This document shows positions 14,833-54,392 of a stretch of 64,000 nt of DNA, piece by piece. Both the position numbers and the translations under genes were made by a program. The DNA is taken from positions 1 to 64,000 of the forward strand of contig JBBCKI010000028.1 in NCBI GenBank assembly GCA_037190965.1, in the 5' to 3' direction. This DNA comes from Chthoniobacteraceae bacterium. Lineage in GTDB: Bacteria; Verrucomicrobiota; Verrucomicrobiia; Chthoniobacterales; Chthoniobacteraceae. How positions within the stretch are numbered: position 1 is the stretch's first letter; each line of letters opens with the position of its first letter. The notes beneath the pieces are model-generated. The model saw only the letters and a program-made list of their open reading frames with translations, did no database searches and was not told the origin of the DNA.

Positions 14833-15558
14833 CTAGCGGTCCCAGTAGTAAAATTCGTCCGGGAGCGGATAGGAATGCTTAGCGGCATGCCCATCGTAGA
14901 AGAGAAGATTTATGGCCTTGTTTTGATAGTGAGGCCTGATGTAAGGACCGGGATCCCCCGGAGGGAACTGGACTTTGTCGCAACGGTTATTCCATTCGTT
15001 CGTGCTATCCTGCCACAAACCAAGCGGATATGATCCGGTATAGGCCACGTCAAAGAGCATGACATAGGTGGAGGGATGCAATACATCCATGACGGACCGT
15101 CTATCAAGCGGTGTGGGGAAGCTGAAGGGGATATAGTTTTCACCCCAATCTGAATTGCTGGTATTGAAGCGGTAGGTCCGCTTTTGTTTCGGGTTCTCGG
15201 AAGGATCCGCCGGACAACGAAAAACCGGCGCTTCCTCCTCTTCGCCAGTGAGGCCGAGATAAGGCGCGATCTGGCGCATCCAGCTTCGCTCAAGGGGTTG
15301 CTGAAGGACAATGGGAGCTTTCATCTGGTTCTCCCCCATCCAGCCCTGGATGGCTACTCCCAGTTGGCGCATGTTATTCAGGCACTTGGTCGAGCGCGCT
15401 TGTTGGGTGATCGCTTGGATCCCTGTTAGAAGCAACGCCGCGATGACAATGATAAGCGCTATGGCCACCAGCAGCTCCAGGAGGGTGAACGCGCTCACGC
15501 GTCGGGTTACATCACTTCTCAGATGACGGCAAGGTCTGGAGAGGCATCGGTGAGGCAT
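14833..15558 (-). CDS. Prepilin-type N-terminal cleavage/methylation protein with DUF1559/H-X9-DG-type C-terminus
   Basis: SAFTLLELLVAIALI, CLNNMRQLG, FRCPAD, HYQNKAINLLFYDGH; alternative start 15582. Confidence 0.88.
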   Translation of the reverse strand: MPHRCLSRPCRHLRSDVTRRVSAFTLLELLVAIALIIVIAALLLTGIQAITQQARSTKCLNNMRQLGVAIQGWMGENQMKAPIVLQQPLERSWMRQIAPYLGLTGEEEEAPVFRCPADPSENPKQKRTYRFNTSNSDWGENYIPFSFPTPLDRRSVMDVLHPSTYVMLFDVAYTGSYPLGLWQDSTNEWNNRCDKVQFPPGDPGPYIRPHYQNKAINLLFYDGHAAKHSYPLPDEFYYWDR

Positions 15559-15568
15559 GGCAATCAAG

Positions 15569-16225
15569 TCATTGTTGTGCATGGGGAGGCGGAGGGAAAC
15601 TGCCCTCGTTTGTCCAGCGTAGGAATATCCACTCCGTTATTCCACCAATCTCGTCCCCTGCGTCGCCAAAATAGAAGTGATTGGAGTTGACGCCTTCCGG
15701 AAGCGAATAGCCGGATGAGGTATGTTCTGGAGTCTCATTGTTGTTACGATAAAGCTCGGCAATCCCATCGTTGATCACGACGCGGTAGGTCATCCATTCA
15801 TCGCTCCCGACAGGAAAGCTATAGTATTTTCTGGAATCGGCGATCACGATATGGGCAGCGGATGTTTTGCCTGGCTGAAGTTCCCGGACGCGACACCTGA
15901 ACTCGACCGTCGTCGGACGACTGGCGTCCCAATACCGGTTGTGCACATCGCCCTCGACTCGCCAGACATAATTGGCTCCAGAGCTATTGTCGCTTGTGTC
16001 GATCACCAGGTGACTCTCTTCGATATAGGTACGGCCTTCTCCCAAGCCCCTCCATTGAGGAGCGAGTTCGTCGGGGAGCTTTTCAAACCGGAGTTCTTGG
16101 GTCCATTGGACATCCGCTTGTTGCGCAACGCCTGCCGGCGCGAGGAGGAGTCCAGCGAGCACTGAAACGGCCAGCCGCAGCACGCCTCTTTTGATGTTTT
16201 CCAAAGGGAATGGAGATGCGTTCAT
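15569..16225 (-). CDS. Secreted protein with ConA/lectin-like beta-sandwich; paralog of the PEP-CTERM protein at 18979
   Basis: Signal peptide ending GVA-QQ; motifs TVEFR, WMTYRVV..GIAELY, FYFGD, EWIFLRWTNEGSF shared with 18979..19737. Confidence 0.65.
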   Translation of the reverse strand: MNASPFPLENIKRGVLRLAVSVLAGLLLAPAGVAQQADVQWTQELRFEKLPDELAPQWRGLGEGRTYIEESHLVIDTSDNSSGANYVWRVEGDVHNRYWDASRPTTVEFRCRVRELQPGKTSAAHIVIADSRKYYSFPVGSDEWMTYRVVINDGIAELYRNNNETPEHTSSGYSLPEGVNSNHFYFGDAGDEIGGITEWIFLRWTNEGSFPPPPHAQQ

Positions 16226-17181
16226 TTGTTGGGATAAAAAACCGCCTCGGTTGCCTTACGATATGCGGCGGAAAGCTCGGTTAACCCTCGCGCCCGCACT
16301 TCTTTCATTGAATAGATCGGGAAGTTGTAGTCATTTTTTGACTCCAATGAATAGTTCACCACGCCCAGAAGCTCTTTTGGATGGAAGTATTCGTTGCGCA
16401 GTTGCGTGATCAGGTCTGCGTAGCGCCAGCGGGGAGAGACGTCATTCACGACGGCTTCAGATTGCGAGCCGAGCAACGCGGGGTCACGATAGATTTCCCA
16501 TGCGGAAGCCAATGTGCCGTCCGGTTTAAGGAAATAGAGGCCCGAACGAGAATCGATATAACCCCACTTCCCGTTCACCAGGATCTCCGCCACTAGATGC
16601 CCCCCGATGATGTGGATGATAATCCTGCCTGGCATTCCCACGGTTTCAGCCAGTCCCACTAACAATCGGCTCACGCCTTCGCATAACCCATCGCCTCGTG
16701 CAATCAACTGCTCCTCCGTGCCGCCAAACTGGATTGCACCGGGATCACTTGGATTTCGATAAATGTTCCTGACGTAGCGCATTAGTGCGAGTGCTTTTTG
16801 CTGTTGCGTAACGCAGTCTTTCGTGACGGAGAATGCGATCGCCTCCAGCTCGGGACGGCTTCCTGCGCGATATTTCGCAACCGGCCAATTATTGCCATAG
16901 ATGATCGGAGTTGTATTCTCATTCAGAATCGTCACCTTCTTTCGCAACTGAAAGTCGACGGAATCGAGATAGTTCGCTTCCATGAGGTGCCAGTTGGCCT
17001 TGAATGCGTCGCGTTGATGCGTATCGCGGATCTGCTCCAGTGCATCCCACCCCGAGTAGGGTTTTAGCGGCATGAGCTGATCTACGAGTTCCACAGTCTC
17101 AGCTGGCGCTTCGGCGGCGATGAGGGGCGTTAGTTGCGTCAGCAGCCCCGCTAATAGAAATGGCACGATCGACGGTTTCAC
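16222..17181 (-). CDS. Secreted transglutaminase-like (Cys-His-Asp) domain protein
   Basis: GDGLCEGVSRL, GMPGR, GGHLVAEILVNGKWGYIDS; GTG start overlaps upstream TGA; signal peptide. Confidence 0.8.
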   Translation of the reverse strand: MKPSIVPFLLAGLLTQLTPLIAAEAPAETVELVDQLMPLKPYSGWDALEQIRDTHQRDAFKANWHLMEANYLDSVDFQLRKKVTILNENTTPIIYGNNWPVAKYRAGSRPELEAIAFSVTKDCVTQQQKALALMRYVRNIYRNPSDPGAIQFGGTEEQLIARGDGLCEGVSRLLVGLAETVGMPGRIIIHIIGGHLVAEILVNGKWGYIDSRSGLYFLKPDGTLASAWEIYRDPALLGSQSEAVVNDVSPRWRYADLITQLRNEYFHPKELLGVVNYSLESKNDYNFPIYSMKEVRARGLTELSAAYRKATEAVFYPNK

Positions 17182-18929
17182 GGTATGATCGAGATGATTT
17201 CCGAGCCGAGATTTCGTGGGTCCTGAAACAGCGACCATTTCCGTACATACTCTTTGTCACCGAGCTGGTTCAGGGAAATGTGCTGTTCCGGCTCGCGCAT
17301 GAAATTGTTGTAAAGATAGAGCCCGTCGGCACCGTCGCGATAGAGCTCGGCTGCGCGATGGAGATAGTCTTCTTTTGTGTAGATTGTCTGCACCCCTGGC
17401 TGTACGCCGCTTTCCACCTCTTCATCGGTCAATTCCGTGTGGGAACTTTCGTCGATGAAATATTCGATATTTCCGTAGATTTTGACGTCGCTTCCCTTGG
17501 TCATCTCGACCCAGGGCTTGATGTCATACCAGATCTCCATATTTCCGAAAGCCTCCCCCGGTACCAGCATGTCGACAAGCCGCTCCTTGATCCACGTTTC
17601 GGGGTCATATCCGTAGCGGCGGGGACTGTTTGCGGGGAGGCGGATGCAGACACCGATCTTTTTGCCTAATGTTTTGCCCACTTCATTGAGTTCCGTGCGC
17701 ACTTCGCGAAGGAAATTGGTCATCACTTCGCATCGCACTTTCTGCCAGCGGGAGTCGCTTTCCGGAAGCCTACGAGGATCCTGGCCAAATTTCTTTTGGA
17801 AGGCGGCGACCATCGGCTCCTCGTATCCCAAGACATGAGGGGTGTGAAAATCGAGCGTCACGCCCTCGCATCCTTGCTCCACCAATTCCTTCAGAACGCC
17901 GAGCTTTTGCTGTCGGATCTCGGGGAAGGCGTAGCTCAATTCTCCGCGGCCTGCGAAGGGTCTTCCGGACTTGTCTTTTATGCCGAATTTTTCGTGGTTC
18001 TCGCGCCAGAAGGCACCGTTTAATGACCATCCAAAAGGGTGATCGCCGTAATAGGCATTCATCCGTTGTGCCCCCCAAACCGGTAATTGGATCTCTGCTC
18101 CCCGTTTCACGAGTGTCGGGTAGAGCGGCATTCCTGCATCCACCAGTTTCCGATAATTGGCGGCGGCGTTCTTCTCGAATTCCCGTGCAAAATTGACGAT
18201 CCCTTCGCCATAGAACTCCAGATATTTGCTGGGAAACTGGACCGTGCCACCGGAGACCGTTTGGTAATCCAATCGCTCGCAGTCGCTATCCTTGAAGCGA
18301 TCGATCTGGCGGTAGATTTCCTGTGGCGTCCAATCACTTTCACCAAATCCCTCACTAAAACCGTCGTTGTTATAGATGACGCGCCGATTTTTTGTCGGGT
18401 TGTTCTCATGTTCCAGAAGGGCGAGGTCTTCCGGGCTGAGGGAGCGAATGCGGATTCGCGTGATTCTCGTTTGTTTCTGGCCATTCTCGATGATCAAGGG
18501 ACCTTCGGCGAAATCGCCATAGCCTGCAAAGATTTCCTGGGAGACGAACTCCCCTTGCTTTGCCGGATTAATGGCATAGACACTTCCGTTGCGAATCGTC
18601 GATTTCGCCGGAAATGGCTCTTTCACTCCATGGTAAAAACGTGCATTCGGAGCCAGAGAAAAGCGCCTATTGCCCCAAGTGGCATTCAATCTCGGGCTCG
18701 GAGTGACCAAGGAAAGGTAGACGGCGTACTTGCCCTCCTGTTTGGGCTGAAACTTGATCGTCTCTCCCCCTTGAAGCTGAACACCGTACCCGTCTGTTTT
18801 GGCATCCGTTCGATAGTGGAGGTGATTGGTGGCCTCCGGTTTGAAAATCCGGAGATCACGGTAGAGATCGCCTTTGGCGAATACAGAGGAGAACGCCAAA
18901 ATAAGAGAGAGAGGGAGTATGCGAATCAT
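17178..18929 (-). CDS. Secreted glycoside hydrolase-like TIM-barrel protein (GHL10-like)
   Basis: Signal peptide; RRVIYNNDG, LSYAFPEIR, EGVTLDF, YDPETWIKERLVD, GADGLYLYN. Confidence 0.7.
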   Translation of the reverse strand: MIRILPLSLILAFSSVFAKGDLYRDLRIFKPEATNHLHYRTDAKTDGYGVQLQGGETIKFQPKQEGKYAVYLSLVTPSPRLNATWGNRRFSLAPNARFYHGVKEPFPAKSTIRNGSVYAINPAKQGEFVSQEIFAGYGDFAEGPLIIENGQKQTRITRIRIRSLSPEDLALLEHENNPTKNRRVIYNNDGFSEGFGESDWTPQEIYRQIDRFKDSDCERLDYQTVSGGTVQFPSKYLEFYGEGIVNFAREFEKNAAANYRKLVDAGMPLYPTLVKRGAEIQLPVWGAQRMNAYYGDHPFGWSLNGAFWRENHEKFGIKDKSGRPFAGRGELSYAFPEIRQQKLGVLKELVEQGCEGVTLDFHTPHVLGYEEPMVAAFQKKFGQDPRRLPESDSRWQKVRCEVMTNFLREVRTELNEVGKTLGKKIGVCIRLPANSPRRYGYDPETWIKERLVDMLVPGEAFGNMEIWYDIKPWVEMTKGSDVKIYGNIEYFIDESSHTELTDEEVESGVQPGVQTIYTKEDYLHRAAELYRDGADGLYLYNNFMREPEQHISLNQLGDKEYVRKWSLFQDPRNLGSEIISIIP

Positions 18930-18978: not shown

Positions 18979-19737
18979 CTATCCGCGTTTTTTGAAGCGT
19001 CGATGGATGAGGATGCCGCCTACAGCAAGAAAGAGGAAGCAGGTCGGTTCCGGCACCGGAATGAACGCTCCGTCATTGGTCCAGCGGATATATTCCCATT
19101 CACTACTTCCAAGCGCGTCGACGTCACCGGTGAAGCGGCCGATGAAAAAATTATTCGCAAAGCCACCACTGCCGACGTTTGCGATCCCGGAGAACGCGTC
19201 GTCGATATATAAGGACGCTTCGCCCGAATCGAACACGATCCGGTAGGTGTGGTAAAGGCTTGTATCGAGAGTGATGGAACCTCCGCCGCCCGCTCCGTTA
19301 TTATTCGTGAGCTCCGCGCTATTCTGGCCGAGACCGAACTGAAACTGGACGCCATTCCATCCGATCCCCAGCGCGGTGCCCCACGCTTCGCTGCTGCCCG
19401 TGGTCAGAAGTTTTACGCGGAATTCCAGAGTGGACGCGGGACCCTCATTTGCGCCCCCACCAAACCATTGACCTGCTGCAAGAGCGGCATAGTTAGCCGG
19501 ATTGAGAACGGTGGCTGTGCCCGTGCCATTCAGCGAGGGCGTTCCGGCGACATTCCAATCCGGATCCCAAGGTAAAGCGGGGGCGTCTTGAGGAAGGCGA
19601 TCTCCTTGCCAGTTAAATGCCCAGTCCACACCATCAATCACAGCGGCAGAAGCGGCGTGGGTTAAAAGAGAGACTGCCATTGCTGCGAGAATCATCGACC
19701 GTCGCAGACTGACTTTTGTTGAGGAGGGGGTGTTCAT
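18979..19737 (-). CDS. PEP-CTERM sorting domain protein with lectin-like domain
   Basis: Signal peptide ending ASA-AV; C-term VPEPT + hydrophobic helix + HRRFKKRG. Confidence 0.9.
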   Translation of the reverse strand: MNTPSSTKVSLRRSMILAAMAVSLLTHAASAAVIDGVDWAFNWQGDRLPQDAPALPWDPDWNVAGTPSLNGTGTATVLNPANYAALAAGQWFGGGANEGPASTLEFRVKLLTTGSSEAWGTALGIGWNGVQFQFGLGQNSAELTNNNGAGGGGSITLDTSLYHTYRIVFDSGEASLYIDDAFSGIANVGSGGFANNFFIGRFTGDVDALGSSEWEYIRWTNDGAFIPVPEPTCFLFLAVGGILIHRRFKKRG

Positions 19738-19759
19738 AGTGCGATTTGATGACGATCTC

Positions 19760-19789
19760 TTTCTAGTATCTAATATATCAGATTGTCAA
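19760..19789 (-). promoter_or_regulatory. Candidate sigma70 promoter of the PEP-CTERM operon with palindromic operator in the spacer
   Basis: Minus strand TTGACA (19789-19784) then ATCTGATATATTAGAT (16-bp palindrome with one mismatched pair, 19768-19783); weak -10 TAGAAA. Confidence 0.6.
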
Positions 19790-19905
19790 TGGGGATTTTG
19801 AAAATCGACTGGTCATGGGATCTGGACCCCGCCTCCCAAAGGGAAAATGCTCGAAGCCATCATTGGGACTTGCGAGACGTGAGAGAGTGCGCCTTTCTAT
19901 TGATC

Positions 19906-20580
19906 ATGCAGAATGCAAAGACGAGTGAGGGTTATTTTTCGACCTTGAGCGAGGCTTGTGCCGTTGAAATTATGACCCTTATTCGGAACGGGGAGTACCC
20001 GCCGGGGACAAAACTCAGCGAGTATTCATTGGCAAAGAGGATTAACTTCGGCCTCAGCCCAATCAAGATGGCGTTGAATCGCCTGGCGGAGGGTGGGATT
20101 CTTGAACGGCGCAACCGTTCCGGCACTTATGTCCGGAGCATCACGACGGAGGAGTATTTGAGTTTGCTCGATATTCGCATCCGTATGGAAGGGTTATCGG
20201 CTTATCAGGCGACGACGAAGTTGACCGCCTCGGAGTTGAAGCAACTCGAGAAGCTGGCCATTGAAACAGATGCTTTTACCCATCTGACGACGCCAGGGGA
20301 GGGAATCCAAAAGCTGAAATCGATCCAAAAGGATATGGATTTCCATATGCGCATCGCCCGAGCTACCCAGAATCGATTCCTCGTTGAGATTCTGGATCGG
20401 CAGCATATTCTGCACATCTGTTTCCTTTTTTCGCTCCAGATCAGCCCCGCTCCATCAAAGGAACTGCTTTCCGGCGTAGGGCACGCCCAGATTGTAGAGG
20501 CATTCAAGCAGCGCGATCCCGCCTTGGCGGAGCAATTGATGCAGCGTCACATTGGCCGGATTCGCGAGTTCCTGAAATAG
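19906..20580 (+). CDS. GntR family regulator (FadR/FCD type)
   Basis: IRNGEYPPGTKLSE..LA...SPIKMALNRLAEGGIL...SGTYV; FCD motifs DMDFH and H..IVEAF..RDP..AEQLMQRHI. Confidence 0.9.
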   Translation: MQNAKTSEGYFSTLSEACAVEIMTLIRNGEYPPGTKLSEYSLAKRINFGLSPIKMALNRLAEGGILERRNRSGTYVRSITTEEYLSLLDIRIRMEGLSAYQATTKLTASELKQLEKLAIETDAFTHLTTPGEGIQKLKSIQKDMDFHMRIARATQNRFLVEILDRQHILHICFLFSLQISPAPSKELLSGVGHAQIVEAFKQRDPALAEQLMQRHIGRIREFLK

Positions 20581-41653: not shown

Positions 41654-41800
41654 GGTAGGCCGCTCGCGCCGTCGAGCGCGGGATCGATGAAGAGTCGCGT
41701 TTGGCGTCCATCCCCGCAGGACGGGCTGCTGGTATCGGGATGCAGCCCTCATGAAGCCAAGGAAGCCGATACTCGCGCTCGACGGCGCGAGCGGGCTACC
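41654..41800. repeat. Inverted pair of GTAG-type REP sequences (REPIN-like)
   Basis: ggtaggccgctcgcgccgtcgagcgcg (41654-41680) and inverted copy cgcgctcgacggcgcgagcgggctacc (41774-41800), 26/27 identical, each with a GCTCG/CGAGC hairpin. Confidence 0.75.
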
Positions 41801-42629
41801 TTGCGCTCTCCACTGAAAGCGCCTGACTTTCCTTCGTAGCTTCCAGCGATTGGAGAAATCGAAGCAGATCGGTACAAGCCATCCTTTGGGATCGACGGCT
41901 CATGGCATAAAAGAATCCATGCTCTGCCGCGGGGTAGATCCGGTAGTCAGCCCGTGCTCCAAGGGCCTTTAGCTGTCCGACCCATTCTATCGTCTGATCG
42001 TTGGGAAACATATGCTCGCATTCCCCGAGCAGGAAAAAAAGGGGTGGAGAATCAGAATCTCCATACCGCCGCGGAGAGAAACGCCGGTAACGCTCCGGCT
42101 CCTCTGCATAGGGAACGCCGACTGCTTCGCAAATCGCGTTCCAGCTTTCCGGGAACATCTCATCCCACGGTTCAAAGGTGATCGCGGCACAACTGACAGC
42201 GACGCCTGCCACTCCGGGAGTCGCTCCACGAAAGCTCTCCCCGCAAGCGCCCTGAGCGGCCAGCCCGGCTAGAAGCGCCAAGTGCCCTCCTGCCGAAGAT
42301 CCGTAGAGCACAAACGGCTGTTCTATTCCCTGCATTCTCAAGTGGTGATCCGCCAGGGCCATTCCTTCCCGGATATCGCCAACCTGCACTGCCGGGTCTG
42401 CGTCTTTCAAGCGGTAGTCCAAGGAAACACAAGGATACCCCCGCTGAAAGAATGCCGTCATAATATCGTGCATCTGATCCCTCCGCCCTTGCCTCCACCC
42501 TCCGCCGTGAATGAAGCAAAGCGTGAGCGGTTGAAGGATCGGAGCGGGCGGAATCCACAGGTCGAGCGCTCGTCCGGCTCGCGGAATGCCGTCGTAGTAG
42601 AGCGATGTATAAACAAAGGCTTCTCTCAT
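41796..42629 (-). CDS. Alpha/beta hydrolase (HSL-like carbohydrate esterase candidate)
   Basis: FIHGGGW, LDYRL, GSSAGGHLA nucleophile elbow, AEHGF. Confidence 0.88.
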   Translation of the reverse strand: MREAFVYTSLYYDGIPRAGRALDLWIPPAPILQPLTLCFIHGGGWRQGRRDQMHDIMTAFFQRGYPCVSLDYRLKDADPAVQVGDIREGMALADHHLRMQGIEQPFVLYGSSAGGHLALLAGLAAQGACGESFRGATPGVAGVAVSCAAITFEPWDEMFPESWNAICEAVGVPYAEEPERYRRFSPRRYGDSDSPPLFFLLGECEHMFPNDQTIEWVGQLKALGARADYRIYPAAEHGFFYAMSRRSQRMACTDLLRFLQSLEATKESQALSVESAR

Positions 42630-45010
42630 GGCTGTCTGGAAGGAGGGAGGAACGGCGATAGCACGCCGGAGACAAAGACCATCTCCTCGTTGAGTTTTTC
42701 ACCTTTCTTGAAGATGATTGCGACATTCCCGTCTGCCGACACAGGAACGGACGAGATATTCTCCATCACCAAAAGCCGCGGTGCTTTCTCCAGGTTGACC
42801 ATTCCCCGCTGAGACAGGCCATTGAAGAATCGGCTGCTTCCTCCTGCCATGTAGAGGGTGCCCTGATCGGAGTAATTCACGATGTTGGCCATGCCGCCGG
42901 ACTCCCCCCCAAAGCGGTTGTTGAGCGCGTAGAGGCTGCCGTAATTATCGATCCAGCGGGTGTTCCGGCTCTGCTTCCACTCTTTAATTGCTTCGGGGCG
43001 CTTGCCGCGTTTGCCATCCCAGAGCGTCGGGTTCATGAGGTTCCCTTCAATGCGCATCCTGCCACCATGGTTCTCGATAAAGGCCCGATGATTCAGACGC
43101 GGGTCGTTGACTAGCCATGCCTCTTTGATCTGTGCCTTGGACGCGTTTGTGACCAGCGCCTGATGACCGGCAAAGACGCCGCCGCGGATCGAAATCTCCC
43201 CGCGATTTTCCGCGCCTTCCTTTCCGCTGAAATAGCGAATCCCCACGCCGGTCTGATTGACAAAGGAGCAATCCTCGAAAGCCACGCGCGCCTTCGCGTC
43301 GGGAGTGCTCTTGACATCCACCCCGTCCTTTCCTCCCTCAAAGAAACATCCTTTGAACAAGGCTTGTTCAATCCCTTTGCCTTCAAATAAAGTTTGACCG
43401 GGATCTTTCGCGGAAAAGATTACTCTCCCCTCCGCCTTTACCACGACACGTTGGGGTAGTGTTACCGGAGTTGCGAAACGATAGAGGCCGGGAGGGAAGA
43501 TCACGACGCTATCGCCTTTTTGCGAGGCTTCCTTGAAGATCCTGCTGATGATCTCATCCACCTCCTGATTGGAGGCAGCTTTCAGTCCGAAATCGACCGC
43601 GTAGATAACCGGTCGGGCTTCGCGCTCGAGATCGGCGGAGGTCCACTCCAGTTCCGGCAGGAAGCTTCGCTCGATGGCTTCATGAGGGATCGCCTTTTCC
43701 TCAAGCGCGGTGATCGTTTCGGGAAGTGGGGTGGAGATATTCGCGCTGTTTCCGGAAAGCCGGACGCGGAACCAGGTGCGAGGCACCAAGGCATTGTTGG
43801 GCGGGATCAGCGCGTGCAGCATTTCCTCATCGGGTGGGAGTTCCCATCGGATGGCCTCGACCGGGCGCCCGGTGGTCTCGGTGACGTTCGTCAAAGAAAG
43901 CAGACTGGGCTGGTTGCCCTTGGAGAGCCAGCAGAGGGCATTGTTCGCTCCCCCGGCCGCCTTGATCCTGCTGTTCCTGATGTTAATGCAGAAGCCGCCA
44001 ATGGTTATCGATACCGGCTTGGGGGAACGAGAAACCCGGATAAAGTCGACGCCTTGCCCGCCTTCCGTGTCGAAATCGAGGTGATCGCCGGAAAGAATGC
44101 CGCCTCCTTCTATCCAATAGGGGGCGCGTTCTTTCTCCGGACGCAGAATGCCCTTGATGTTTACAAGATTAGCCATTCCGCTGGGAAGATTCAGCATGGG
44201 GAGACCGTGCCGCCCGCCTCCGGTGATGCGGCAATTGCGCAGGCTGGTGTCGTCGCACTGGAGATCCGCCGCGCCGGCGCAGTCGATGAATTCAGAGTCG
44301 GAAATGACGAATAGCGTGGAGTTAAACCATTCGCCAAGGTTCTCGCCTTTATTGGGTTGCAGGGTGGGCCGCCCGTTGCTCCATTCCACTCCGTAGGGTG
44401 CCCACGGCTTGGTGTGGTCCAACTCCCGGTCGGTACCGGTGAACTTTGTTTCGGTATACGACTGGCATTCCACCGCGTAACCGCCGGAGCGGGTGAACGT
44501 GCAGTTGAAGACGTTAATCTCCGCAGGCCCGAGATTGTTCGTCCAGAATCTAAGCTGCGTTTTCCCGCCGACAAAAGAGAAGCCCTCCACCCGGTGTCGG
44601 GCGGTGCTGTGAAAGTAGAAGATCTCGTGATCGGGATTCGCCTGTTCAACCGTGACCTCCCCAAGAGAGCGAAGGTGAATGGGGACGGTAAAGACGATGG
44701 GGCGCGTGATACGATAGTGGCCCTTCGGAAAGACGACTTCCGGCACTGCCCAGATATTGAATCCGTTAACCATATGTCCCCAATGCCCTCCCTTTAGATG
44801 AAGAGAGGACCTGGATTCCACAGCAGCCTGTACGGCGGCCTGAATGGCATCGGTATCGTCGGCTACTCCATCGCCCTTTGCGCCAAAGCGGGCGACATCG
44901 TGAGCGGAGGATGGGGTTGAAAGGGGCGGAACCGCCGCCCCGGTATCCCCGGAAGCAGCAGCTATCGTCAAAAGGGGAACTGCAACCCCAAAAAGGATGG
45001 ATCGGAACAT
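42626..45010 (-). CDS. Secreted parallel beta-helix protein (pectate_lyase_3/GH28/GH55-like) with two tandem N-terminal-type motifs
   Basis: DVARFGAKGDGVADDTDAIQAA...VVFPKGHYRITRPI and a second AVDFGL...VVIFPPGLYRF. Confidence 0.78.
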   Translation of the reverse strand: MFRSILFGVAVPLLTIAAASGDTGAAVPPLSTPSSAHDVARFGAKGDGVADDTDAIQAAVQAAVESRSSLHLKGGHWGHMVNGFNIWAVPEVVFPKGHYRITRPIVFTVPIHLRSLGEVTVEQANPDHEIFYFHSTARHRVEGFSFVGGKTQLRFWTNNLGPAEINVFNCTFTRSGGYAVECQSYTETKFTGTDRELDHTKPWAPYGVEWSNGRPTLQPNKGENLGEWFNSTLFVISDSEFIDCAGAADLQCDDTSLRNCRITGGGRHGLPMLNLPSGMANLVNIKGILRPEKERAPYWIEGGGILSGDHLDFDTEGGQGVDFIRVSRSPKPVSITIGGFCINIRNSRIKAAGGANNALCWLSKGNQPSLLSLTNVTETTGRPVEAIRWELPPDEEMLHALIPPNNALVPRTWFRVRLSGNSANISTPLPETITALEEKAIPHEAIERSFLPELEWTSADLEREARPVIYAVDFGLKAASNQEVDEIISRIFKEASQKGDSVVIFPPGLYRFATPVTLPQRVVVKAEGRVIFSAKDPGQTLFEGKGIEQALFKGCFFEGGKDGVDVKSTPDAKARVAFEDCSFVNQTGVGIRYFSGKEGAENRGEISIRGGVFAGHQALVTNASKAQIKEAWLVNDPRLNHRAFIENHGGRMRIEGNLMNPTLWDGKRGKRPEAIKEWKQSRNTRWIDNYGSLYALNNRFGGESGGMANIVNYSDQGTLYMAGGSSRFFNGLSQRGMVNLEKAPRLLVMENISSVPVSADGNVAIIFKKGEKLNEEMVFVSGVLSPFLPPSRQP

Positions 45011-45058: not shown

Positions 45059-45691
45059 CTACTCGGGAAAGATGTGAAGGAGATTGACGTTGGAGAGGCT
45101 CTCTACGTGCCCGTCGGCGTAGAGGCCATTGAAGCGGCCGGAGTGGCATTTGCCGATCCGCTCCGGCGTGGCGGTTGAGAATCCGGAGACAGCAGCATCA
45201 ACTGGCGCATCCGTAATCATCAGAAAGCTGGCGGGATACTGGAGCTGCGACCGGCCCCCCCGGAAGAGACTTTGGCCAACGGCGTTCAGATTTCCGAGAT
45301 GGAAGTTGTAAGCATAGCTATCATACCGGTTCGGGTGCTCCGGGCAGCCGTTGATGCCGCTGGCTTGATTCCAGCGGGCAACGGTGGCGTTGTCGGATGC
45401 TCCGCCAAGCAGGTAGTTGAGGACCAGCGGGCTGCTGAAGTGGTACCACGCCCGGCCGTCATTGAAGGGATACGAACCCGGGAATCTCCCCTGGAAATCC
45501 GATGTGTATTGGTGAATGACGGTTCCCCATTGCTTGAGATTGGAAATGCATTGCGTCTGCCTTGCGGCCTCGGCAGCCCTTTGCGAGAAGCTGACCAGAA
45601 GCCCTGCAAGGACAACCAGGACGCTAACAGCTATCAGCAACTCAACGAGGCTGAAAGCGCTTCGAGGTTCTCTGGGGGAGGGCAATCGCAT
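45059..45691 (-). CDS. Prepilin-type N-terminal cleavage/methylation protein with H-X9-DG domain
   Basis: SAFSLVELLIAV, CISNLKQWG, GCP, SYAYN, HSGRFNGLYADGH. Confidence 0.9.
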   Translation of the reverse strand: MRLPSPREPRSAFSLVELLIAVSVLVVLAGLLVSFSQRAAEAARQTQCISNLKQWGTVIHQYTSDFQGRFPGSYPFNDGRAWYHFSSPLVLNYLLGGASDNATVARWNQASGINGCPEHPNRYDSYAYNFHLGNLNAVGQSLFRGGRSQLQYPASFLMITDAPVDAAVSGFSTATPERIGKCHSGRFNGLYADGHVESLSNVNLLHIFPE

Positions 45692-45720: not shown

Positions 45721-46410
45721 TTACTTCGTCCCCTTGAGGTGTTTGCTCAACAAAAATCCGACCCCCATAAACGGGATGAGCAAGCCCATGGCGGACACCT
45801 CCGGAATGGCGGTGCCTTCAATGTACATGGTGAGGCCCCGCGTAGTATAGCGACCATAGGCGCCGGTATCCTTGTACCATGTGAAAGAGTTCTGGCCAGC
45901 GGCATTGGTATTGGCGATCACAAAATTCACCGAGGTATTCAAATCATGCGAGCGGAGCATGAAGATGTAATATTTATCCTTATCAAGATTCACCGGACCC
46001 GCCAGTTCAAAGCGGAGAAAGGTATTGTTAGTAAGGGAACCGGGGAAGGTGCCCGTGTCTTCCGCAATCAGGTTGCCTGCGGAGGGAGCCTCTGAGGCAC
46101 TATTTGTCTGGTAGATGCTGAGCGTGAAAGTCTTGGTGGCGGCACCAGGCTGAGTGACTGCAAACGGAAGCGTAATGGCGGTAACAGCGAGCCTCTGTGT
46201 GGCGTAGAACGATTGGCCCAATTCGTATTGGTTATTCCACGAGTAGCTGATGGAACCGCTCCCCGCGTCGGTCGGAATATGCTGAAGGACCAGCCCACTG
46301 GTGGGAGCGGTGGCCGGGTTGGTAACGATCACGCTGGCAGAAGCGGGAACCGCTTTGCCGAGAAGAAGGAGGACCAGGGGAAGGGCGGTAGGGAGGCGTT
46401 TGAGTTTCAT
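45721..46410 (-). CDS. PEP-CTERM-like surface protein (IPEV variant)
   Basis: Signal peptide ending ASA; C-term AIPEVS + hydrophobic helix + KHLKGTK. Confidence 0.75.
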   Translation of the reverse strand: MKLKRLPTALPLVLLLLGKAVPASASVIVTNPATAPTSGLVLQHIPTDAGSGSISYSWNNQYELGQSFYATQRLAVTAITLPFAVTQPGAATKTFTLSIYQTNSASEAPSAGNLIAEDTGTFPGSLTNNTFLRFELAGPVNLDKDKYYIFMLRSHDLNTSVNFVIANTNAAGQNSFTWYKDTGAYGRYTTRGLTMYIEGTAIPEVSAMGLLIPFMGVGFLLSKHLKGTK

Positions 46411-46490: not shown

Positions 46491-46527
46491 CGGTACCGCA
46501 TAATACCAAAGGAAAGTGGAGCGTCAA
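46491..46527 (-). promoter_or_regulatory. Candidate sigma70 promoter with palindromic operator near +1
   Basis: Minus strand TTGACG-16 nt-TATTAT with extended TG; CGGTACCG palindrome (46491-46498) just downstream. Confidence 0.6.
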
Positions 46528-46640
46528 TCCCTTTTTCGAAATCGGCCTTTTGCTTTCCAGTTGTGATGAAGGATTCGAGAAGGTATTTTGTGGTTCCAGG
46601 CTTTCCTTTTTCCGTTTTTTGCCTGAATTTCCTCTCCTTC

Positions 46641-47786
46641 ATGTCTGACCTTTCCGCTCCCCGCAGTAAACCGGTGCAAAAGCCGAAGAGTTCGTCGATT
46701 GCTCCCTCGGAGAATACGGCCGATCCGATGGAGAATCAGATCGAACTGCACTACACGCATGAAATCCTTTCGGGCAAGCTCCCGCCGGGCACGCGCCTTC
46801 CCTCCAACCAGAGTTTGGCAGGACAGTGGTCCACGAGCTGCCGGACGATTCAGCGGGCGATGGCCAGCTTGACGGCTCTGGGACTGATCGAGCGAACGGC
46901 GAGTCGGGGAACTTTTGTGCGAAGCCGTGAGCAGCAGGCGCTGGTGGGCGTGCTCATGGGGCCGAGCCTTGTTGACGATGTATCCGGCTACTACCGGATG
47001 ATCTGGTCGGCGCTGCAGACGGAGTTGAGTTCTGCGTATCTCTCTGCCCGCATCTATGACAGCCTGGATCAAAGTTATTCCTCGCCGCACAGGGACACGC
47101 AGATCAGCTATCTAAATGCCGATCTGAAGTACCACACGTTTACCGGCTTTATTGAAATCGCCACGCTGGGGGTTCCGGCGGGCATTCACCCCGTTGGCTA
47201 TCCCCGCGCGGTCTATGAACCGAAGCGGGAGGATAACGATGTGTCCTACGATTTCGAAGGGATCGGCCGACAGATTGTGCACGATTTTCATCGCAATGGA
47301 GTTCGCCGACTCTGGATTTTCCGTTCCAGCCCGGATCCCTCTTCGCGCGATCTTGAGGTGAAAGCGGCTTTAAAGGCGGCGCGCGATCTGGGGATGCCGA
47401 AGCCGGAGGTCTTCAATATTCCGGCAGAGCACGAGGGCTACTATGTGGAAAAGGAAACGCATGACTGCCTGATCCGGAAGCTTGCCGGGCTGCCGCGAAG
47501 GCAGCTGCCGGAGGGGCTGATGATGACGACGGATGTGGCCGCGAAAGGAGCTGTCATGGCGTTGCTCAAGCATGGCGTTGAGATTCCCCGGCAGGTGAAG
47601 ATCGCGGTGGTTACGGCGGAGAACTCGCGGGTTTACTACTCCGTGCCGGTCCAGCAGTACTGCCTGCCTATTCAGAAGCTGGCTTCATCATTGGCCACTG
47701 TGCTGAGAGATCGCATTGCGAAGAAAACCTCGGTGGAAACGCCGATCATCCTGCAAGGATGGCTGGAAAGCGAAAAGGGATCGTAG
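46641..47786 (+). CDS. GntR-HTH plus LacI-type sugar-binding domain regulator (AraR-like)
   Basis: ILSGKLPPGTRLPSNQSLA...TIQRAMASL..LGLIER..SRGTFV; C-term DVAAKGAVMALLKHGVEIPRQVKI; start 46641 or 46728. Confidence 0.85.
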   Translation: MSDLSAPRSKPVQKPKSSSIAPSENTADPMENQIELHYTHEILSGKLPPGTRLPSNQSLAGQWSTSCRTIQRAMASLTALGLIERTASRGTFVRSREQQALVGVLMGPSLVDDVSGYYRMIWSALQTELSSAYLSARIYDSLDQSYSSPHRDTQISYLNADLKYHTFTGFIEIATLGVPAGIHPVGYPRAVYEPKREDNDVSYDFEGIGRQIVHDFHRNGVRRLWIFRSSPDPSSRDLEVKAALKAARDLGMPKPEVFNIPAEHEGYYVEKETHDCLIRKLAGLPRRQLPEGLMMTTDVAAKGAVMALLKHGVEIPRQVKIAVVTAENSRVYYSVPVQQYCLPIQKLASSLATVLRDRIAKKTSVETPIILQGWLESEKGS

Positions 47787-49823: not shown

Positions 49824-49836
49824 ATCTACATTGACC

Positions 49837-50673
49837 ATGAGTTTACCGATGAAACGAAAATTGAAAGATCGCCTTTGGCTTTGGGGACAGAGCGCGGGAA
49901 GTCACCACGGCTCCGCAGGAAACAAGGTTTGGAAGCTGCCGGGCGTGAACCGGATGGAAGCCGCCGAGGGGGCTGCTTATCTGGGGATTGAGAGGATGTG
50001 CCGGGTGGTAATGGGCGGCCAGCCCCTACCGCCATTCGACGCCGAGCAGGAAAGGCTCGCCGGGATGAAGGAGGTGATCTGGTCGGCGGTGGGTGATAGC
50101 GGTTCCATTCGGAATAACTCGACGAGCGATCTCTGTGAAGTGCTGCGGCTGGCGGAGACGCACCCGAACATCTCAGGCGCGGTACTGGACGATTTCTTCC
50201 GGGCGAAAGCGACGCCGGAGTCGTCCCACGGCAGATATAGCGTCGAGAGTGTCCAGTCGATGCGCGACCAGCTTGCGGCATTCCCCGCGCGGCCCCTTGA
50301 TCTCTGGATTGTCTGGTATAAGGAGGAGCTTGATTTCGATATCGATGACTATTTGGGGATCTTCGATGTCATTACCTTCTGGAATATGATGGCCCCGGCT
50401 CACCATGCGGAATGGGAGGCCGATATTGCGAAGGTGGTTGCGCGGACCCCGGGCAAGCGACGCCTGGCCGGATGCTATTTGTGGAACTACGGTGAGGGAA
50501 AGCCGCTGGGAGTGGATGAGATCCGTGCCCAGTGCGAGACTTACCTCGAGTGGATCAGGCGCGGAGAGATCGAGGGGATCATCTTTTGCTCGAACTGCTG
50601 TGCCGACCTCGGCTTGGAAGCCGTGGAGTGGGTGCGCCAGTGGATCCAGGAGCGGGGGGAGGAAGTGGTATAA
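49837..50673 (+). CDS. Hypothetical protein (possible small TIM barrel)
   Basis: About 280-aa ORF inside the operon; LWLWG, HPNISGAVLDDFF, DVITFW, GCYLWNYG. Confidence 0.65.
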   Translation: MSLPMKRKLKDRLWLWGQSAGSHHGSAGNKVWKLPGVNRMEAAEGAAYLGIERMCRVVMGGQPLPPFDAEQERLAGMKEVIWSAVGDSGSIRNNSTSDLCEVLRLAETHPNISGAVLDDFFRAKATPESSHGRYSVESVQSMRDQLAAFPARPLDLWIVWYKEELDFDIDDYLGIFDVITFWNMMAPAHHAEWEADIAKVVARTPGKRRLAGCYLWNYGEGKPLGVDEIRAQCETYLEWIRRGEIEGIIFCSNCCADLGLEAVEWVRQWIQERGEEVV

Positions 50674-50681
50674 GAGGAAAT

Positions 50682-51398
50682 ATGACGAAGCTCAGACATA
50701 GAACAGCAGAATCGGGAGCCGGGCAGTGCAGATGCGAGGCTCCGATGGGTTTTAGCCTCACTGAGTTGTTGGTTGTCATCGCGATTATCGCGGTTCTTCT
50801 GAGCATCATGTTTCCAGTCTTGGGTAGCTTCCGCAAGAACAGCCAGTCTGTCCAGTGTATGCATAATCTCAGAAAGCTGGGCATGGCCTGGGTTCTCTAT
50901 TCCAACGATAATAAAGGCTACCTCCCGCCCATCTTTCGCCCCGCCGAAAGTCCGTCCGACTCCGGGAAAACGTGGGGAATGATTCTGACAGATCTGGGGC
51001 TGGTTCCGCCGCTCTGGGATGACGCCAGCTTTAAGGCCTGGTATTGCCCGGGATGGGCGCCCGCTTCCCCAACCGCACCCGGAGGAGGTGCTCCCTGGAC
51101 CAATATCTACGGGGGCCTCCTCTACCGCGATTCGCTGGATGACGAACGTCGCCTGAGCGAGATTCCCGGCACGACCCCTTTGCTGGCAGACAGCATCAAC
51201 GAAGCCTCCGGGTTTCCCCACTACTACATTCCCGTGCATCAACCGGGTACGACGATCAAAATCCACCTCCGCCATAACAAAAAGGCAAACCTCTTCTTCG
51301 CGGACGGGCATGGAGAAAGCGTAACCGCTGAACGCCTGGGCCAGATTCAGTACGGTGGCACTCCCATTACCAGCTGGTCGGAACGGGAATCCCCCTAA
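50682..51398 (+). CDS. Prepilin-type N-terminal cleavage/methylation protein with H-X9-DG domain
   Basis: MGFSLTELLVVIAIIAVL, CMHNLRKLG, WYCPG, HNKKANLFFADGH; GAGG before ATG 50682. Confidence 0.9.
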   Translation: MTKLRHRTAESGAGQCRCEAPMGFSLTELLVVIAIIAVLLSIMFPVLGSFRKNSQSVQCMHNLRKLGMAWVLYSNDNKGYLPPIFRPAESPSDSGKTWGMILTDLGLVPPLWDDASFKAWYCPGWAPASPTAPGGGAPWTNIYGGLLYRDSLDDERRLSEIPGTTPLLADSINEASGFPHYYIPVHQPGTTIKIHLRHNKKANLFFADGHGESVTAERLGQIQYGGTPITSWSERESP

Positions 51399-51428
51399 CA
51401 CGAAGTTTTTTCTTACGACATTCATCCA

Positions 51429-54392
51429 ATGAAGTTATTACTGTTGCCCCCATTTCTTTCCAGATCCCTGCCGCGCCGGTTCAGACGCGTGGTGCTTGCC
51501 GCTTTCGGATTTGTCTTTGCCGTCCAGATGGCGTTTGCCGCTCCTCTCTCTGTGGTCGAGGGTGGGAAGTCGTCGTATGTGATTGTGGTGTCAAAGGACG
51601 CTTCGCTGCCCGAGCAGCACGCGGCGGATGAGCTTCGGCGTTATGTTGCAAAAGTGTCCGGCGCGGAACTGCCGGTCATTCATCAGGCGGGGGAAGGCCA
51701 GAAGGCAATCTACATCGGGACGAAACACCCTCAACTTGCGCAGGGCGGAAAAAAGGGAGAACACCCATCCCACGATGACGGCTTTCTCGTTCACGCGGAT
51801 GATGGGAACATTGTGATCACCTCCGAAAGTCCCAGAGGGGTTTTATACGGCACCTATGCTTTCATCGAAAAGACGCTTGGCGTCCGTTGGATGAACCCCG
51901 GGGAAGATGGAGAATACGTGCCAAAGAGAGAAGCGGTAGGCATTGAATCGGGCCGGTGGGCTGAAGATCCCTTTTTCAAGAACCGCTTCTTCACGCTGAC
52001 CTGTACGAATATCAACGCGATGCTGTGGGATACGTGGGACTGGATGGTGCGGAATCGGATGCAGGTGAAAGTGACCTACAAGCCCTTTTGGGAAAATTCC
52101 GAGCATGGCGATTGGCTGAACAGACGGGCGGTGTTGATTGAGGGCGGCGGGCACGTCCTCGCCAGCTTTGTTCCGGAAGAAGTCTACTTCAAGAGTCACC
52201 CCGAGTATTTCACGCTGATTGACGGAAAGCGGATTGCCGGGGGTCACGCGGTCGATGAATTCGGCAAATGCTATCAACGTTGTACCTCGAACAGTGATGT
52301 TATCAAGCTGAGCGCCGGCTATATTAATAGCTTCTTCAGCACGGAACCCGCGGGTGATATTTTTGGGATCGGTAACAATGATGGCGACGGCTGGTGCGAG
52401 TGTGGGCCGTGTACGGCTCTGGACCATCCCGACGAAGCGAAGGAACACCTGGTATCGACGCGCTTTATGCACTTTGTGAATGCCGTGACGGAGGAAGTGT
52501 TGAAGGCACACCCGGAAAAGGAGATCTACACGTGGGGCTACCAGCGTTTTCGCTCGGCTCCAAAGGGCGTAAAGCCGCACCCTAAGGTAAGTCTCTTTGT
52601 AGCCCTGCACGGGCGTTGCTATCGGCATTCACTCGATGATGCGAAGTGCCCGGCAAATACGCAGATGCGTACGATCCTTTCGGAATGGCGGAAGTTTTCG
52701 AACCCGGTGGGAGTGAGGGAATACTACTCTTGCTTTCTTGGAGGAGACGTAAGGAGCCCGGTGCCGCCTTATACGCCGCTGGAAGATGTCGTGGCCAAGG
52801 ACATCAAATACCTCGCCAGCATCGGTTGTGTGTTGTGGGAGGATGAGACACCGCCACCGGATGGTGTGTTTGGTTCAGTTTTTGACAATGAAAGTGTGCG
52901 TGAGTCGTGGCGGTCGCGCTTTCCGATGTATTACGTCGCCGCAAAGCTCCTCTGGAATCCTGAACTGGACGTAGAGGTCCTCAAAGATGAGGTCTATCGC
53001 GCCTGGTATGGCGCAGCTTATGAGGAGATGAAGTCGTATCGAGAGCTGATTTCGAAAGCATGGCAGGAATCGGACGGACACTTTATCTACGGATCCAACG
53101 CGATCTTTATCGGGAAATCACTGGATGCACCGGGGCGTCAGGAGGAATGTCTTCGACTGCTGAATGCGGCGACGGCCAAAGCGCAGGATGATCCCAAGTT
53201 GGCGAAGCGGATCGCCGAGGAGAAGCACTACTTTGAATCGATATGGGTCAAGATGGCTGGTGAGCTTCGCACGACCTTCGCGTGGGAAGATGTGCAGGCG
53301 CACCGGGCCTCCGGGCCGGTAAGCATTGACGGGAACCTGAGCGACGCCGCATGGGCAAAAGTGCCTGTGACCACCGGGTTCCACACGGCGGCTGGGAACC
53401 TTGCGGAGCAGCAGACCTTCGTCAAGATGCTCTATGATAAGGATGCCCTGGTGATTGGCATGGAGATGATGGAGCCGACTCCCAAAGCGATGGAGGTGAG
53501 CGAGACACAGCGCGATGGGCGTGTGTGGGGAGAGGATAGCGTGGAGCTGTTCATTGACCCGGAGCGCTCCGGATCAAGCTATTACCATATCGTCTTTAAT
53601 GCATTGGGGACGATTTACGACGCCGCCTGCGTGGAAGGCGGCAAGATGGATCGGGCTTTCAATGGGAACTATGAGATTCGCACGAAGGTGTTGGAGGATC
53701 GTTGGATTGCAGAGGTGCGAATTCCCTTTGTTGCTTTCAAAACCGAGGCGGCAGAAGGGAGCGCCTGGAAGATGAATATCGGCCGGACGCGCAGTGTGAA
53801 GGGAGCTGCCGTGGAAAATAGCTCCTGGACGGATGGACGCTTCCATCAGGTCAATAGCTTCCGCACGGTGGTCTTCGGGGATCGGCCTGCGTTACTGACA
53901 AATGGGGGCTTTGAGAAAATTGGAGAGGTCAACACGGATGCAGACCGGGATTTTTACAGTGTGGGTAAGTGGGAGTTGGGAAATACACCGGCGATTTTCC
54001 CGGTGAGATGGAGCCTTCATGATGCCCATCCCGGCAAGCTGACGCTGGTTAACGATGATGTTCATTCGGGGAAATGGGCGGCCAAGGTGGAGCGAGGATG
54101 GATCTATCAGGGAGTCGATGTCGGCGAGGGGGCATCTTTGAAGATCTCCTTCTGGGCCAAAGGCGAGGATTCGCTCAAGGCCATGCTCTTCCAGTATCGG
54201 CAGGAGGCAGGCGAGGTTAAGGATTTTCTCGAAACGGTTGAGCTGGAGACCTTCCCACTTCAGGGGGATTGGCAGAAGTATACGATCGAGTACGTGTTGA
54301 CGTCGCCATCGGTGAACCACGTGGCCATCGCTCTTGATGTTCAGGGAGAGGCGATTCTCGACGACGTCTTTATTGAAGAAAAACAGCAATGA
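51429..54392 (+). CDS. Secreted DUF4838 protein with CBM9-like and CBM4-like C-terminal modules
   Basis: AADELRRY..KVSGAELP, RGVLYGTYAFIEK.LGVRW, HPEYF, NDGDGWCECGPC; IDGNLSD.AW, DSVELFIDP, WIAEVRIPF; LLTNGGFE..ILDDV. Confidence 0.82.
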   Translation: MKLLLLPPFLSRSLPRRFRRVVLAAFGFVFAVQMAFAAPLSVVEGGKSSYVIVVSKDASLPEQHAADELRRYVAKVSGAELPVIHQAGEGQKAIYIGTKHPQLAQGGKKGEHPSHDDGFLVHADDGNIVITSESPRGVLYGTYAFIEKTLGVRWMNPGEDGEYVPKREAVGIESGRWAEDPFFKNRFFTLTCTNINAMLWDTWDWMVRNRMQVKVTYKPFWENSEHGDWLNRRAVLIEGGGHVLASFVPEEVYFKSHPEYFTLIDGKRIAGGHAVDEFGKCYQRCTSNSDVIKLSAGYINSFFSTEPAGDIFGIGNNDGDGWCECGPCTALDHPDEAKEHLVSTRFMHFVNAVTEEVLKAHPEKEIYTWGYQRFRSAPKGVKPHPKVSLFVALHGRCYRHSLDDAKCPANTQMRTILSEWRKFSNPVGVREYYSCFLGGDVRSPVPPYTPLEDVVAKDIKYLASIGCVLWEDETPPPDGVFGSVFDNESVRESWRSRFPMYYVAAKLLWNPELDVEVLKDEVYRAWYGAAYEEMKSYRELISKAWQESDGHFIYGSNAIFIGKSLDAPGRQEECLRLLNAATAKAQDDPKLAKRIAEEKHYFESIWVKMAGELRTTFAWEDVQAHRASGPVSIDGNLSDAAWAKVPVTTGFHTAAGNLAEQQTFVKMLYDKDALVIGMEMMEPTPKAMEVSETQRDGRVWGEDSVELFIDPERSGSSYYHIVFNALGTIYDAACVEGGKMDRAFNGNYEIRTKVLEDRWIAEVRIPFVAFKTEAAEGSAWKMNIGRTRSVKGAAVENSSWTDGRFHQVNSFRTVVFGDRPALLTNGGFEKIGEVNTDADRDFYSVGKWELGNTPAIFPVRWSLHDAHPGKLTLVNDDVHSGKWAAKVERGWIYQGVDVGEGASLKISFWAKGEDSLKAMLFQYRQEAGEVKDFLETVELETFPLQGDWQKYTIEYVLTSPSVNHVAIALDVQGEAILDDVFIEEKQQ

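Follow-up and report, generated by a model that had tools for sequence, protein, structure and literature searches.

H-X9-DG-class prepilin genes recur with PEP-CTERM genes and sugar-type regulators in nutrient loci of a Chthoniobacteraceae bacterium

The SusC/SusD loci of Bacteroidota devote one regulated locus to each substrate, in which catabolic genes and secreted enzymes accompany a binding protein of the cell surface, and among minor pilins there are subunits that bind ligands: ComP of Neisseria binds DNA and PilC of Streptococcus sanguinis binds glycan. The route by which Verrucomicrobiota and Planctomycetota import glycans in the absence of SusC/D has yet to be settled, and the gene linkage described here bears on it. 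The subject of this analysis is a window of 64,000 nucleotides (positions 1 to 64,000 of contig JBBCKI010000028.1, here C28) from the genome of a Chthoniobacteraceae bacterium (GCA_037190965.1, here G000; 4.21 Mb, 97% complete), in which genes for prepilins of the DUF1559 (PF07596, SBP_bac_10)/H-X9-DG (TIGR04294) class are found with PEP-CTERM genes and GntR-family regulators. Tuwongella has 91 DUF1559-type proteins, dispersed round the genome and often flanked by signal-peptide genes; the available part of that report gives them no function and no link to PEP-CTERM genes or sugar regulators (PMC8567305). The PEP-CTERM/exosortase (EpsH) system was first seen in Verrucomicrobium, and the available part of its description proposes a tie to exopolysaccharide and biofilm (PMC1569441). 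In Akkermansiaceae, a type IV-like pilus locus, MUL2, has been implicated in glycan capture or uptake; it comprises a single locus of four genes, among them those for PilM and an archaeal-like pilin, and is reported to be less conserved in Chthoniobacterales (PMC13174399).

Two loci of the window share a layout that an earlier note on this DNA had pointed out: a PEP-CTERM gene (PEP-CTERM 1, 18979..19737; PEP-CTERM 2, 45721..46410; both minus strand) is the first gene of an operon divergent from a GntR-family regulator, and coordinates and families alike were confirmed. Each operon also has a prepilin gene, as claimed (pilin 1, 14833..15582; pilin 2, 45059..45691; both minus strand), although not both are of the H-X9-DG form: only pilin 2 passes TIGR04294 (20.7; cut-off 19), and pilin 1 has H-X11-DG spacing and no match to that model. 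A third prepilin gene (pilin 3, 50682..51398, plus strand), which keeps the nine-residue H-X9-DG spacing and scores 15.2 with TIGR04294, under the cut-off, directly precedes a DUF4838-CBM9 gene, as the note had it, with a gap of 30 bp.

For genome-wide counts, a set of 3,400 genes was produced by a self-trained script (start positions are approximations, and two pilins that it missed were entered manually). A motif scan of the genome gave 81 prepilins and 85 PEP-CTERM candidates, six of which were dropped by eye and two further genes added by profile, leaving 81 PEP-CTERM genes. The H-X9-DG class comprises 31 pilins hand-picked from a profile ranking of 61 hits, three borderline proteins without the DG motif being excluded; an independent TIGR04294 search of the genome returned 31 matches at E ≤ 10. 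With neighborhood set at five genes or fewer and 3,000 draws of random positions as the null, a PEP-CTERM gene was found near 29 of the 31 pilins (null 6.0, maximum 14), a GntR/LacI regulator near 20 (null 4.1), and a DUF4838 gene near nine (null 1.2); nine of the 17 DUF4838 genes lie near a pilin. Pfam scans of 128 genes no more than three places from the 28 pilins outside the window found glycan-active or -binding families in 25, seven of them DUF4838, compared with 6 of 130 control genes scanned among the 199 genes of 20 random regions (Fisher p 2e-4), the glycan classes being our own classification of a Pfam sample. The enrichment anticipated in the earlier note is therefore present for PEP-CTERM, GntR/LacI, and glycan-active genes and absent for AraC regulators (6/31, p 0.12); neither Gfo/Idh/MocA oxidoreductases (7/31, p 0.06) nor small secreted proteins (7/31, p 0.13) were significantly enriched near the pilins. 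The layout is real, recurrent, and far above chance in this genome.

Such linkage could arise without any functional connection if two expanded families had been co-duplicated in mobile catabolic islands; both are expanded in this genus, and kin genomes and duplicated operons are not independent samples. This explanation is largely refuted, and we regard it as highly improbable, on four grounds. First, gene order is polar: among 50 sister-genome pilins, a same-strand PEP-CTERM gene lies directly upstream of 23, downstream of one, and in opposite orientation at two. Second, the linkage holds conditional on regulated loci, PEP-CTERM genes being near 17 of the 18 sugar-type regulators with a pilin versus 14 of the 34 without one (52 regulators in all; p 2e-4). 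Third, the other 24 prepilin loci of the genome have a PEP-CTERM gene nearby in only seven cases (GntR/LacI 5/24, DUF4838 3/24). Fourth, subtype-matched pilin/PEP-CTERM pairs are retained across classes at 30 to 50% identity. That pilin and PEP-CTERM protein form a functional, nutrient-specific module is, in our estimation, very probable. In 40 loci from the top-listed TIGR04294 matches of the sister genomes G001, G002, and G005, a PEP-CTERM gene was present in 37 and a GntR/LacI gene in 33; gene order is a stronger figure than 37 of 40, because PEP-CTERM density in the sister genomes is probably high. A second sample of 20 loci, found from homologs of the two PEP-CTERM proteins of the window, has a pilin in 18. 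TonB receptors, whose routine presence in orthologous loci the earlier note had named as telling against its interpretation, were found at none of the 60 sister loci (0 of the 40 in the first sample), a count that relies mainly on PF00593 match coordinates because a four-sequence TonB profile re-found only its training sequences.

Compared with other DUF1559/H-X9-DG proteins of the Planctomycetota–Verrucomicrobiota–Chlamydiota (PVC) group, the pilins described here share the prepilin motif, the N-terminal DUF1559 match, the C-terminal DG, and the dispersal of paralogs, and differ in their statistical tie to PEP-CTERM genes and sugar regulators and in having nutrient-matched subtypes. The PEP-CTERM proteins conform to the exosortase system in signal peptide, in a tail of PEP motif, transmembrane (TM) helix, and basic residues, and in the service of one exosortase to about 81 substrates, and depart from the role proposed for it in that 31 of the 81 genes adjoin pilins in nutrient-acquisition loci. 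A SusC/SusD polysaccharide utilization locus (PUL) likewise co-locates a regulator, a surface binder, glycan-active enzymes, and catabolic genes; in the loci described here there is no SusC-type receptor or SusD, importers are of the ABC type, regulators are GntR/LacI, a pilin fills a recurring slot, and the range of loci extends to heme and probably zinc. MUL2 is also verrucomicrobial and also implicates pilus-type proteins in glycan capture, whereas here there are dozens of substrate-matched pilins in loci without machinery; a general family scan detected neither PilM nor any other assembly family among the window proteins, no search having been aimed with MUL2 sequences. The Verru_Chthon cassettes of the same genome, another set of expanded prepilins, consist of pilins in adjacent sets of three that have neither the C-x-x-N-L nor the DG motif, unlike the solitary window pilins, which score 13 to 20 bits with the cassette models (TIGR02596/02599 and partners) against cut-offs of 70 to 256. 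ComP and PilC have structural counterparts in pilin 2 and PEP-CTERM 1, respectively, although a genome has one or two such subunits, whereas here pilin and lectin are encoded separately and recur from nutrient to nutrient. The architecture thus lies outside SusC/D PULs, MUL2, and Verru_Chthon cassettes and in its working would come closest to a ligand-specific type IV filament system. In a literature search that most subscription papers lay outside, we found no paper that connects H-X9-DG/DUF1559 pilins with PEP-CTERM genes or with nutrient loci. Because of the linkage, two large families of unassigned function gain a testable role; substrates are predicted from neighboring genes, and in PVC genomes pilin/PEP-CTERM genes could mark utilization loci as susC/D do in Bacteroidota.

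The pair is also found in heme and probable zinc loci, so a glycan-only module is rejected; the module is nutrient-general, and the earlier glycan reading was therefore too narrow. Among 301 genomes of the phylum, with related genomes counting as non-independent samples, hemS was found in 12, a heme-type pilin in 17, and both in 10. The 13 hemS loci, two on short contigs, comprise eight with a pilin only, two with a TonB receptor only, one with both, and two with neither; the two hemS genomes without a heme-type pilin are those of the receptor-only loci, where the TonB receptor is beside hemS. In G000, the heme locus L005:8327-13512 (C13; L-numbers label individual loci examined) contains AraC, PEP-CTERM, pilin, HemS, and ABC importer genes and no TonB receptor, and a second heme-type pilin (L019:4990-8360, C30) accompanies a large PEP-CTERM beta-repeat protein with no hemS nearby, a pair that recurs in L121. 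A further subtype carries the motif DH[T/I]H in all 10 copies, compared with 1 of the 31 pilins of G000, which suggests, from sequence, that this pilin may itself bind ligand; a choice-of-anchor-M-like neighbor is present in nine of the 10, and the remaining copy is on a contig of 2 kb. At L027:7860-11226 (C71), the DHTH pilin stands with a Fur-family regulator, a CobW GTPase, and a choice-of-anchor M PEP-CTERM protein, and zinc is the probable nutrient because of Fur, CobW, and the His motifs, although CobW is found in only 2 of the 10 loci of this subtype. In L111 and L113, from two genomes, a spermidine-synthase-domain membrane protein adjoins the zinc-type pilin. The heme loci, where pilin and TonB receptor alternate, and the His-motif pilin offer clean test cases.

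Pilin subtype follows locus type, and both cassettes of the window recur with their own pilin. Among 103 pilins, a PEP-CTERM family is common to 16 of 35 pairs related at 80 bits or more, a large neighbor to 16 of 38 such pairs, and a regulator sensor to 9 of 30; for unrelated pairs the figures are 2.6%, 1.5%, and 1.4%. The best hit of pilin 1 (40% identity) is at L175, together with a regulator 64%, a same-family PEP-CTERM protein 30%, an oxidoreductase 63%, and ABC genes 58 to 75% identical to those of the window. No homolog of the open reading frames (ORFs) 17178, 16222, and 13448 was detected in L175, which has a different, weakly GH18-like protein in place. Because L175 retains the ABC importer without the tested secreted and catabolic ORFs, pilin 1 follows the uptake genes, not those enzymes. 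The four best hits of the pilin 2 head are exactly the loci with homologs of both PEP-CTERM 2 and the secreted beta-helix protein encoded beside it (L172, L184, L185, and L188).

Machinery lies elsewhere in the genome, as does its only detected TonB receptor. Among the 49 window proteins scanned, none belongs to the TonB receptor, SusD, pilus ATPase, or prepilin peptidase families, in agreement with the earlier note. Exosortase, PilD, and PilB were all located at other sites of G000: there is one exosortase (PF09721, single match, C42:6838) for about 81 PEP-CTERM substrates, one PilD (C56), five PilB/GspE-type and four shorter PilT-like ATPases (a split made by score and length), and five secretin matches, and where a pilin and a machinery gene share a contig they are at least 14 kb apart. 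The single TonB receptor is on contig C62, which carries none of the 31 pilins, and SusD (PF07980) had no match in the 97%-complete genome, a Bacteroides control being positive. Four of five same-genus genomes have 96 to 149 TIGR04294 matches and one to four TonB receptor matches; the small G004 has two and one.

These observations can be accommodated by a reading to which we give slightly less than even weight: substrate-matched minor pilins and anchored lectin-fold binders, as predicted from sequence, would feed a shared retractile filament and secretin, so that the nutrient crosses the outer membrane without a TonB receptor. The GntR/LacI regulator would induce the operon upon its substrate. 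PilD would cleave the pilin, which would join the filament as a minor subunit, its variable domain recognizing the substrate or the loaded binder. Exosortase would process the PEP-CTERM protein, whose display in the envelope may concentrate substrate beside the secreted enzymes. Retraction of the filament would then draw substrate through the secretin, and the ABC importer and catabolic enzymes of the locus would complete uptake. Capture and import are favored because of the alternation with TonB receptors at hemS, the retention of pilin with an ABC importer, and a His motif within the pilin itself. A wider version, tentative and somewhat doubtful, would make this a PVC-wide, TonB-independent route of nutrient import, in which up to about 150 inducible, interchangeable pilins and exosortase-anchored receptors reprogram one retractile filament and secretin for glycan, heme, or metal, and DUF1559/H-X9-DG proteins are the counterpart of SusC/D.

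The pilin could instead be a cargo-specific pseudopilin adaptor of type II secretion, selecting the PEP-CTERM protein and large enzymes of its locus for export, with small products entering via porins. G000 has two gsp-type clusters with secretins (C13 and C52), 13 of the 31 pilins have, no more than three genes away, a large protein whose start resembles a signal peptide (null 2.4, by a crude heuristic), the beta-helix enzyme accompanies pilin 2 at all four best hits, and type II secretion is needed by GlyGly-CTERM and MYXO-CTERM proteins, according to the available part of PMC11980579. An adaptor of this kind is nonetheless rather unlikely: pilin 1 is kept with an ABC importer where the tested enzymes were undetected, the zinc-type pilin has a His motif of its own, and export alone leaves the outer-membrane crossing of heme unexplained at the eight receptor-less hemS loci. 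The proposal that these are substrate-specific parts on shared machinery was borne out insofar as subtype tracks locus type and machinery lies elsewhere; it did not extend to heme and probable zinc, and a role like that of SusC/D would have to prevail over secretion adaptors as a live rival.

All three window pilins carry a type IV prepilin cleavage/methylation motif with E5 and a hydrophobic helix. TIGR02532 is passed by pilins 2 and 3 (predicted cleavage at the hyphen in A-FSLVE and G-FSLTE, respectively), and in pilin 1 (A-FTLLE) the motif is visible although PF07963 scores 20.5 against a cut-off of 21.2; PF07596 is above cut-off for pilins 1 (30.4) and 2, and pilin 3 has no match. The predicted architecture of pilin 2 is that of a type IV pilin: the model (pLDDT 82) has an N-terminal helix of about 50 residues (3 to 53) and a globular head, and the top nine rows of a structure search are type IV pilins or pseudopilins (best Z 5.8, rmsd 3.3, 116 aligned), with ComP among the neighbors (Z 4.8). 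A complex prediction for pilin 2 and PEP-CTERM 2 scored 0.00 in two runs in which controls were not folded, and is evidence neither way. A pilin left unassembled in the inner membrane could serve as a periplasm-facing binding and hand-over protein, the PEP-CTERM protein being likewise periplasmic. Position -1 is Ala instead of Gly in 19 of the 31 pilins, in Legionella a pilin promotes the acquisition of iron independently of PilD and PilT (available part of PMC13170364), and Akkermansia PEP-CTERM proteins were higher in intracellular than in outer-membrane fractions (available part of PMC4960237). Ala at -1 is, however, as common in other prepilins (27 of 55), E5, like the C-terminal DG, is conserved in at least 90% of 76 aligned pilins, and passage of the outer membrane at receptor-less heme loci would go unexplained; we consider this arrangement improbable.

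Under the filament-import reading, the PEP-CTERM protein would be the anchored binder. Both window proteins have a signal peptide and a C-terminal PEP-type motif, TM helix, and basic tail, although the tails gave no Pfam or NCBIfam match at the thresholds used. In PEP-CTERM 1 the motif is VPEP, and PEP is conserved in at least 90% of 84 aligned sequences among 274 homologs, an alignment too divergent for pattern-based locus searches; PEP-CTERM 2 is an IPEV variant outside known families, in which PE is invariant across 15 aligned homologs. The model of PEP-CTERM 1 (pLDDT 88.9) is a concanavalin-A/LamG-like beta-sandwich, with a best Z of 14.6 in a structure search (rmsd 2.6, 162 aligned; Foldseek E 5e-7); Vibrio cholerae sialidase, the sialic-acid-binding domain of that enzyme, and AbnA domain 4 are tied in the top rows (Z 14.5 to 14.6). 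The predicted fold is lectin-like, a fold common to lectins, hydrolases, and non-binding domains. PilC, a minor pilin of S. sanguinis, shares it (Z 12.1), which would suit an adhesion kit in which pilin and lectin only hold the cell on a substrate particle and import proceeds by other, unrecognized channels; MUL2 is described as facilitating attachment (PMC13174399), and type IV pili assist planctomycete adhesion to chitin (available part of PMC11131199). We think adhesion alone quite improbable, for the same pair is found at heme and probable zinc loci, where the likely targets are solutes and not surfaces, and it alternates with a TonB receptor at hemS.

Several observations weigh against import by filament. 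Although 31 of the 81 PEP-CTERM genes are near such a pilin, 50 are not, and same-family genomes with few such pilins also have few TonB receptors (0 to 7), so a small number of receptors is not by itself a predictor of the module. At hemS, the locus with both pilin and receptor and the two with neither break the alternation, and 7 of the 17 genomes with a heme-type pilin lack hemS. L186, L187, and L190 have PEP-CTERM 2 homologs with unrelated pilins and no beta-helix homolog: pilin 2 tracks the beta-helix enzyme more tightly than PEP-CTERM 2, which fits an enzyme-export adaptor equally well. Co-duplication contributes to the sharing seen among pilin pairs, since related genomes are non-independent and operon duplication alone co-inherits neighbors. 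The frequency of Ala at -1 belongs here too, as do the middling fold match of pilin 2 and the lack of any Foldseek match at E ≤ 0.001 with its model.

At locus 1, the minus-strand run headed by PEP-CTERM 1 is divergent from a plus-strand gene for a GntR-FCD (FadR-type) regulator (19783..20580; PF00392 and PF07729; 64% identical to its L175 ortholog), whose true start is probably the ATG at 19906. Gaps within the minus-strand runs of loci 1 and 2 are -61 to +49 bp, and pilin 1 is four genes downstream of PEP-CTERM 1. In between are a secreted putative glycoside hydrolase (17178..18929), weakly GHL10/GH156-like; a transglutaminase-like protein (16222..17238; PF01841, with Cys, His, and Asp motifs at residues 185, 213, and 227), for which the search of genome contigs gave no related locus; and a small secreted ORF (15569..16225), an unanchored paralog of the PEP-CTERM 1 domain (BLASTP E 6e-10; A2 profile E 1e-42, anchor absent), all on the minus strand. 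That domain family has seven members in G000, two anchored and five unanchored, of which six are no more than five genes from a pilin; anchored and soluble copies are together in two loci (members include window 15569-16225, L007, L012, and L026). Downstream of pilin 1, a minus-strand block (6430..14797) comprises an unassigned ORF and genes for a DegT-type aminotransferase, a Gfo/Idh/MocA oxidoreductase, a sugar-type ABC binding protein with two permeases, and a ceramidase-like protein. The secreted glycan-active genes attributed to both loci are clear in locus 2 and weak in locus 1, where the matches are sub-threshold or partial: the 17178 product scores 19.4 with GHL10 (PF02638; cut-off 27.9) and aligns with exosialidase 6RZD along 94 residues (E 1e-8). 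Together with the fold match of PEP-CTERM 1 to a sialic-acid-binding domain, the aminotransferase, and the oxidoreductase, this partial match hints that the substrate of locus 1 may be amino-sugar- or sialic-acid-like.

TTGAC promoters and palindromic operators had been assigned to both loci. At locus 1, a TTGACA hexamer (19789-19784) adjoins an imperfect 16-bp palindrome (19768-19783), together a candidate promoter/operator (19768..19789, minus strand), although the promoter scanner listed none there; at locus 2, the sigma70-type promoter TTGACG-16-TATTAT of the PEP-CTERM 2 operon (46500..46527, minus strand) was upheld (1 found, 0.1 expected). As above-chance operators the palindromes were rejected, since 86 of 200 shuffles score as well as that of locus 1, though it abuts TTGACA, and 184 of 200 as well as that of locus 2.

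Loci 2 and 3 are headed by a regulator with a GntR helix-turn-helix and a LacI-type sensor (46563..47786, plus strand; PF00392 and PF13377; 65% identity in L172). Its divergent minus-strand run consists of PEP-CTERM 2, pilin 2, the secreted pectate-lyase-like beta-helix protein (42626..45010; PF12708, 61 bits, above cut-off), and an alpha/beta-hydrolase esterase of the BD-FAE family (41796..42629; PF20434). Pilin 3 is in the plus-strand arm behind this regulator, which makes loci 2 and 3 the two arms of a single cluster. Between regulator and pilin 3 (47922-50673) are two ORFs, 633 and 280 aa long, that match no Pfam family; a homolog of the former accompanies regulator, PEP-CTERM, and pilin in L176. 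Pilin 3 is followed on the plus strand by the secreted GH67N-DUF4838-CBM9 protein (51429..54392), for which a sequence search found no relative of solved structure, and by a Gfo/Idh/MocA oxidoreductase, an AraC regulator, GH42, and GH20 (54463..60696). DUF4838 copies number 0, 15, 29, 51, and 52 in G004, G000, G002, G005, and G001, and TIGR04294 matches 2, 31, 125, 104, and 149, the two roughly rising together.

Elsewhere in the window are a solitary PEP-CTERM gene amid housekeeping genes (30847-31515; close paralog at C24:84143), a putative porin (28787-30172; PF16930) that is a possible entry route for small products, and a 1,050-aa protein (3024-6176) whose N-terminal region without Pfam match is fused to a UvrD helicase. 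On other contigs of G000, a PEP-CTERM gene and pilin immediately precede a branched-chain-amino-acid-type ABC importer that is accompanied by a ROK regulator (L023:8442-12755, C53), and a Pup-ligase family gene adjoins a proteasomal ATPase (L045:3903-7112, C2).

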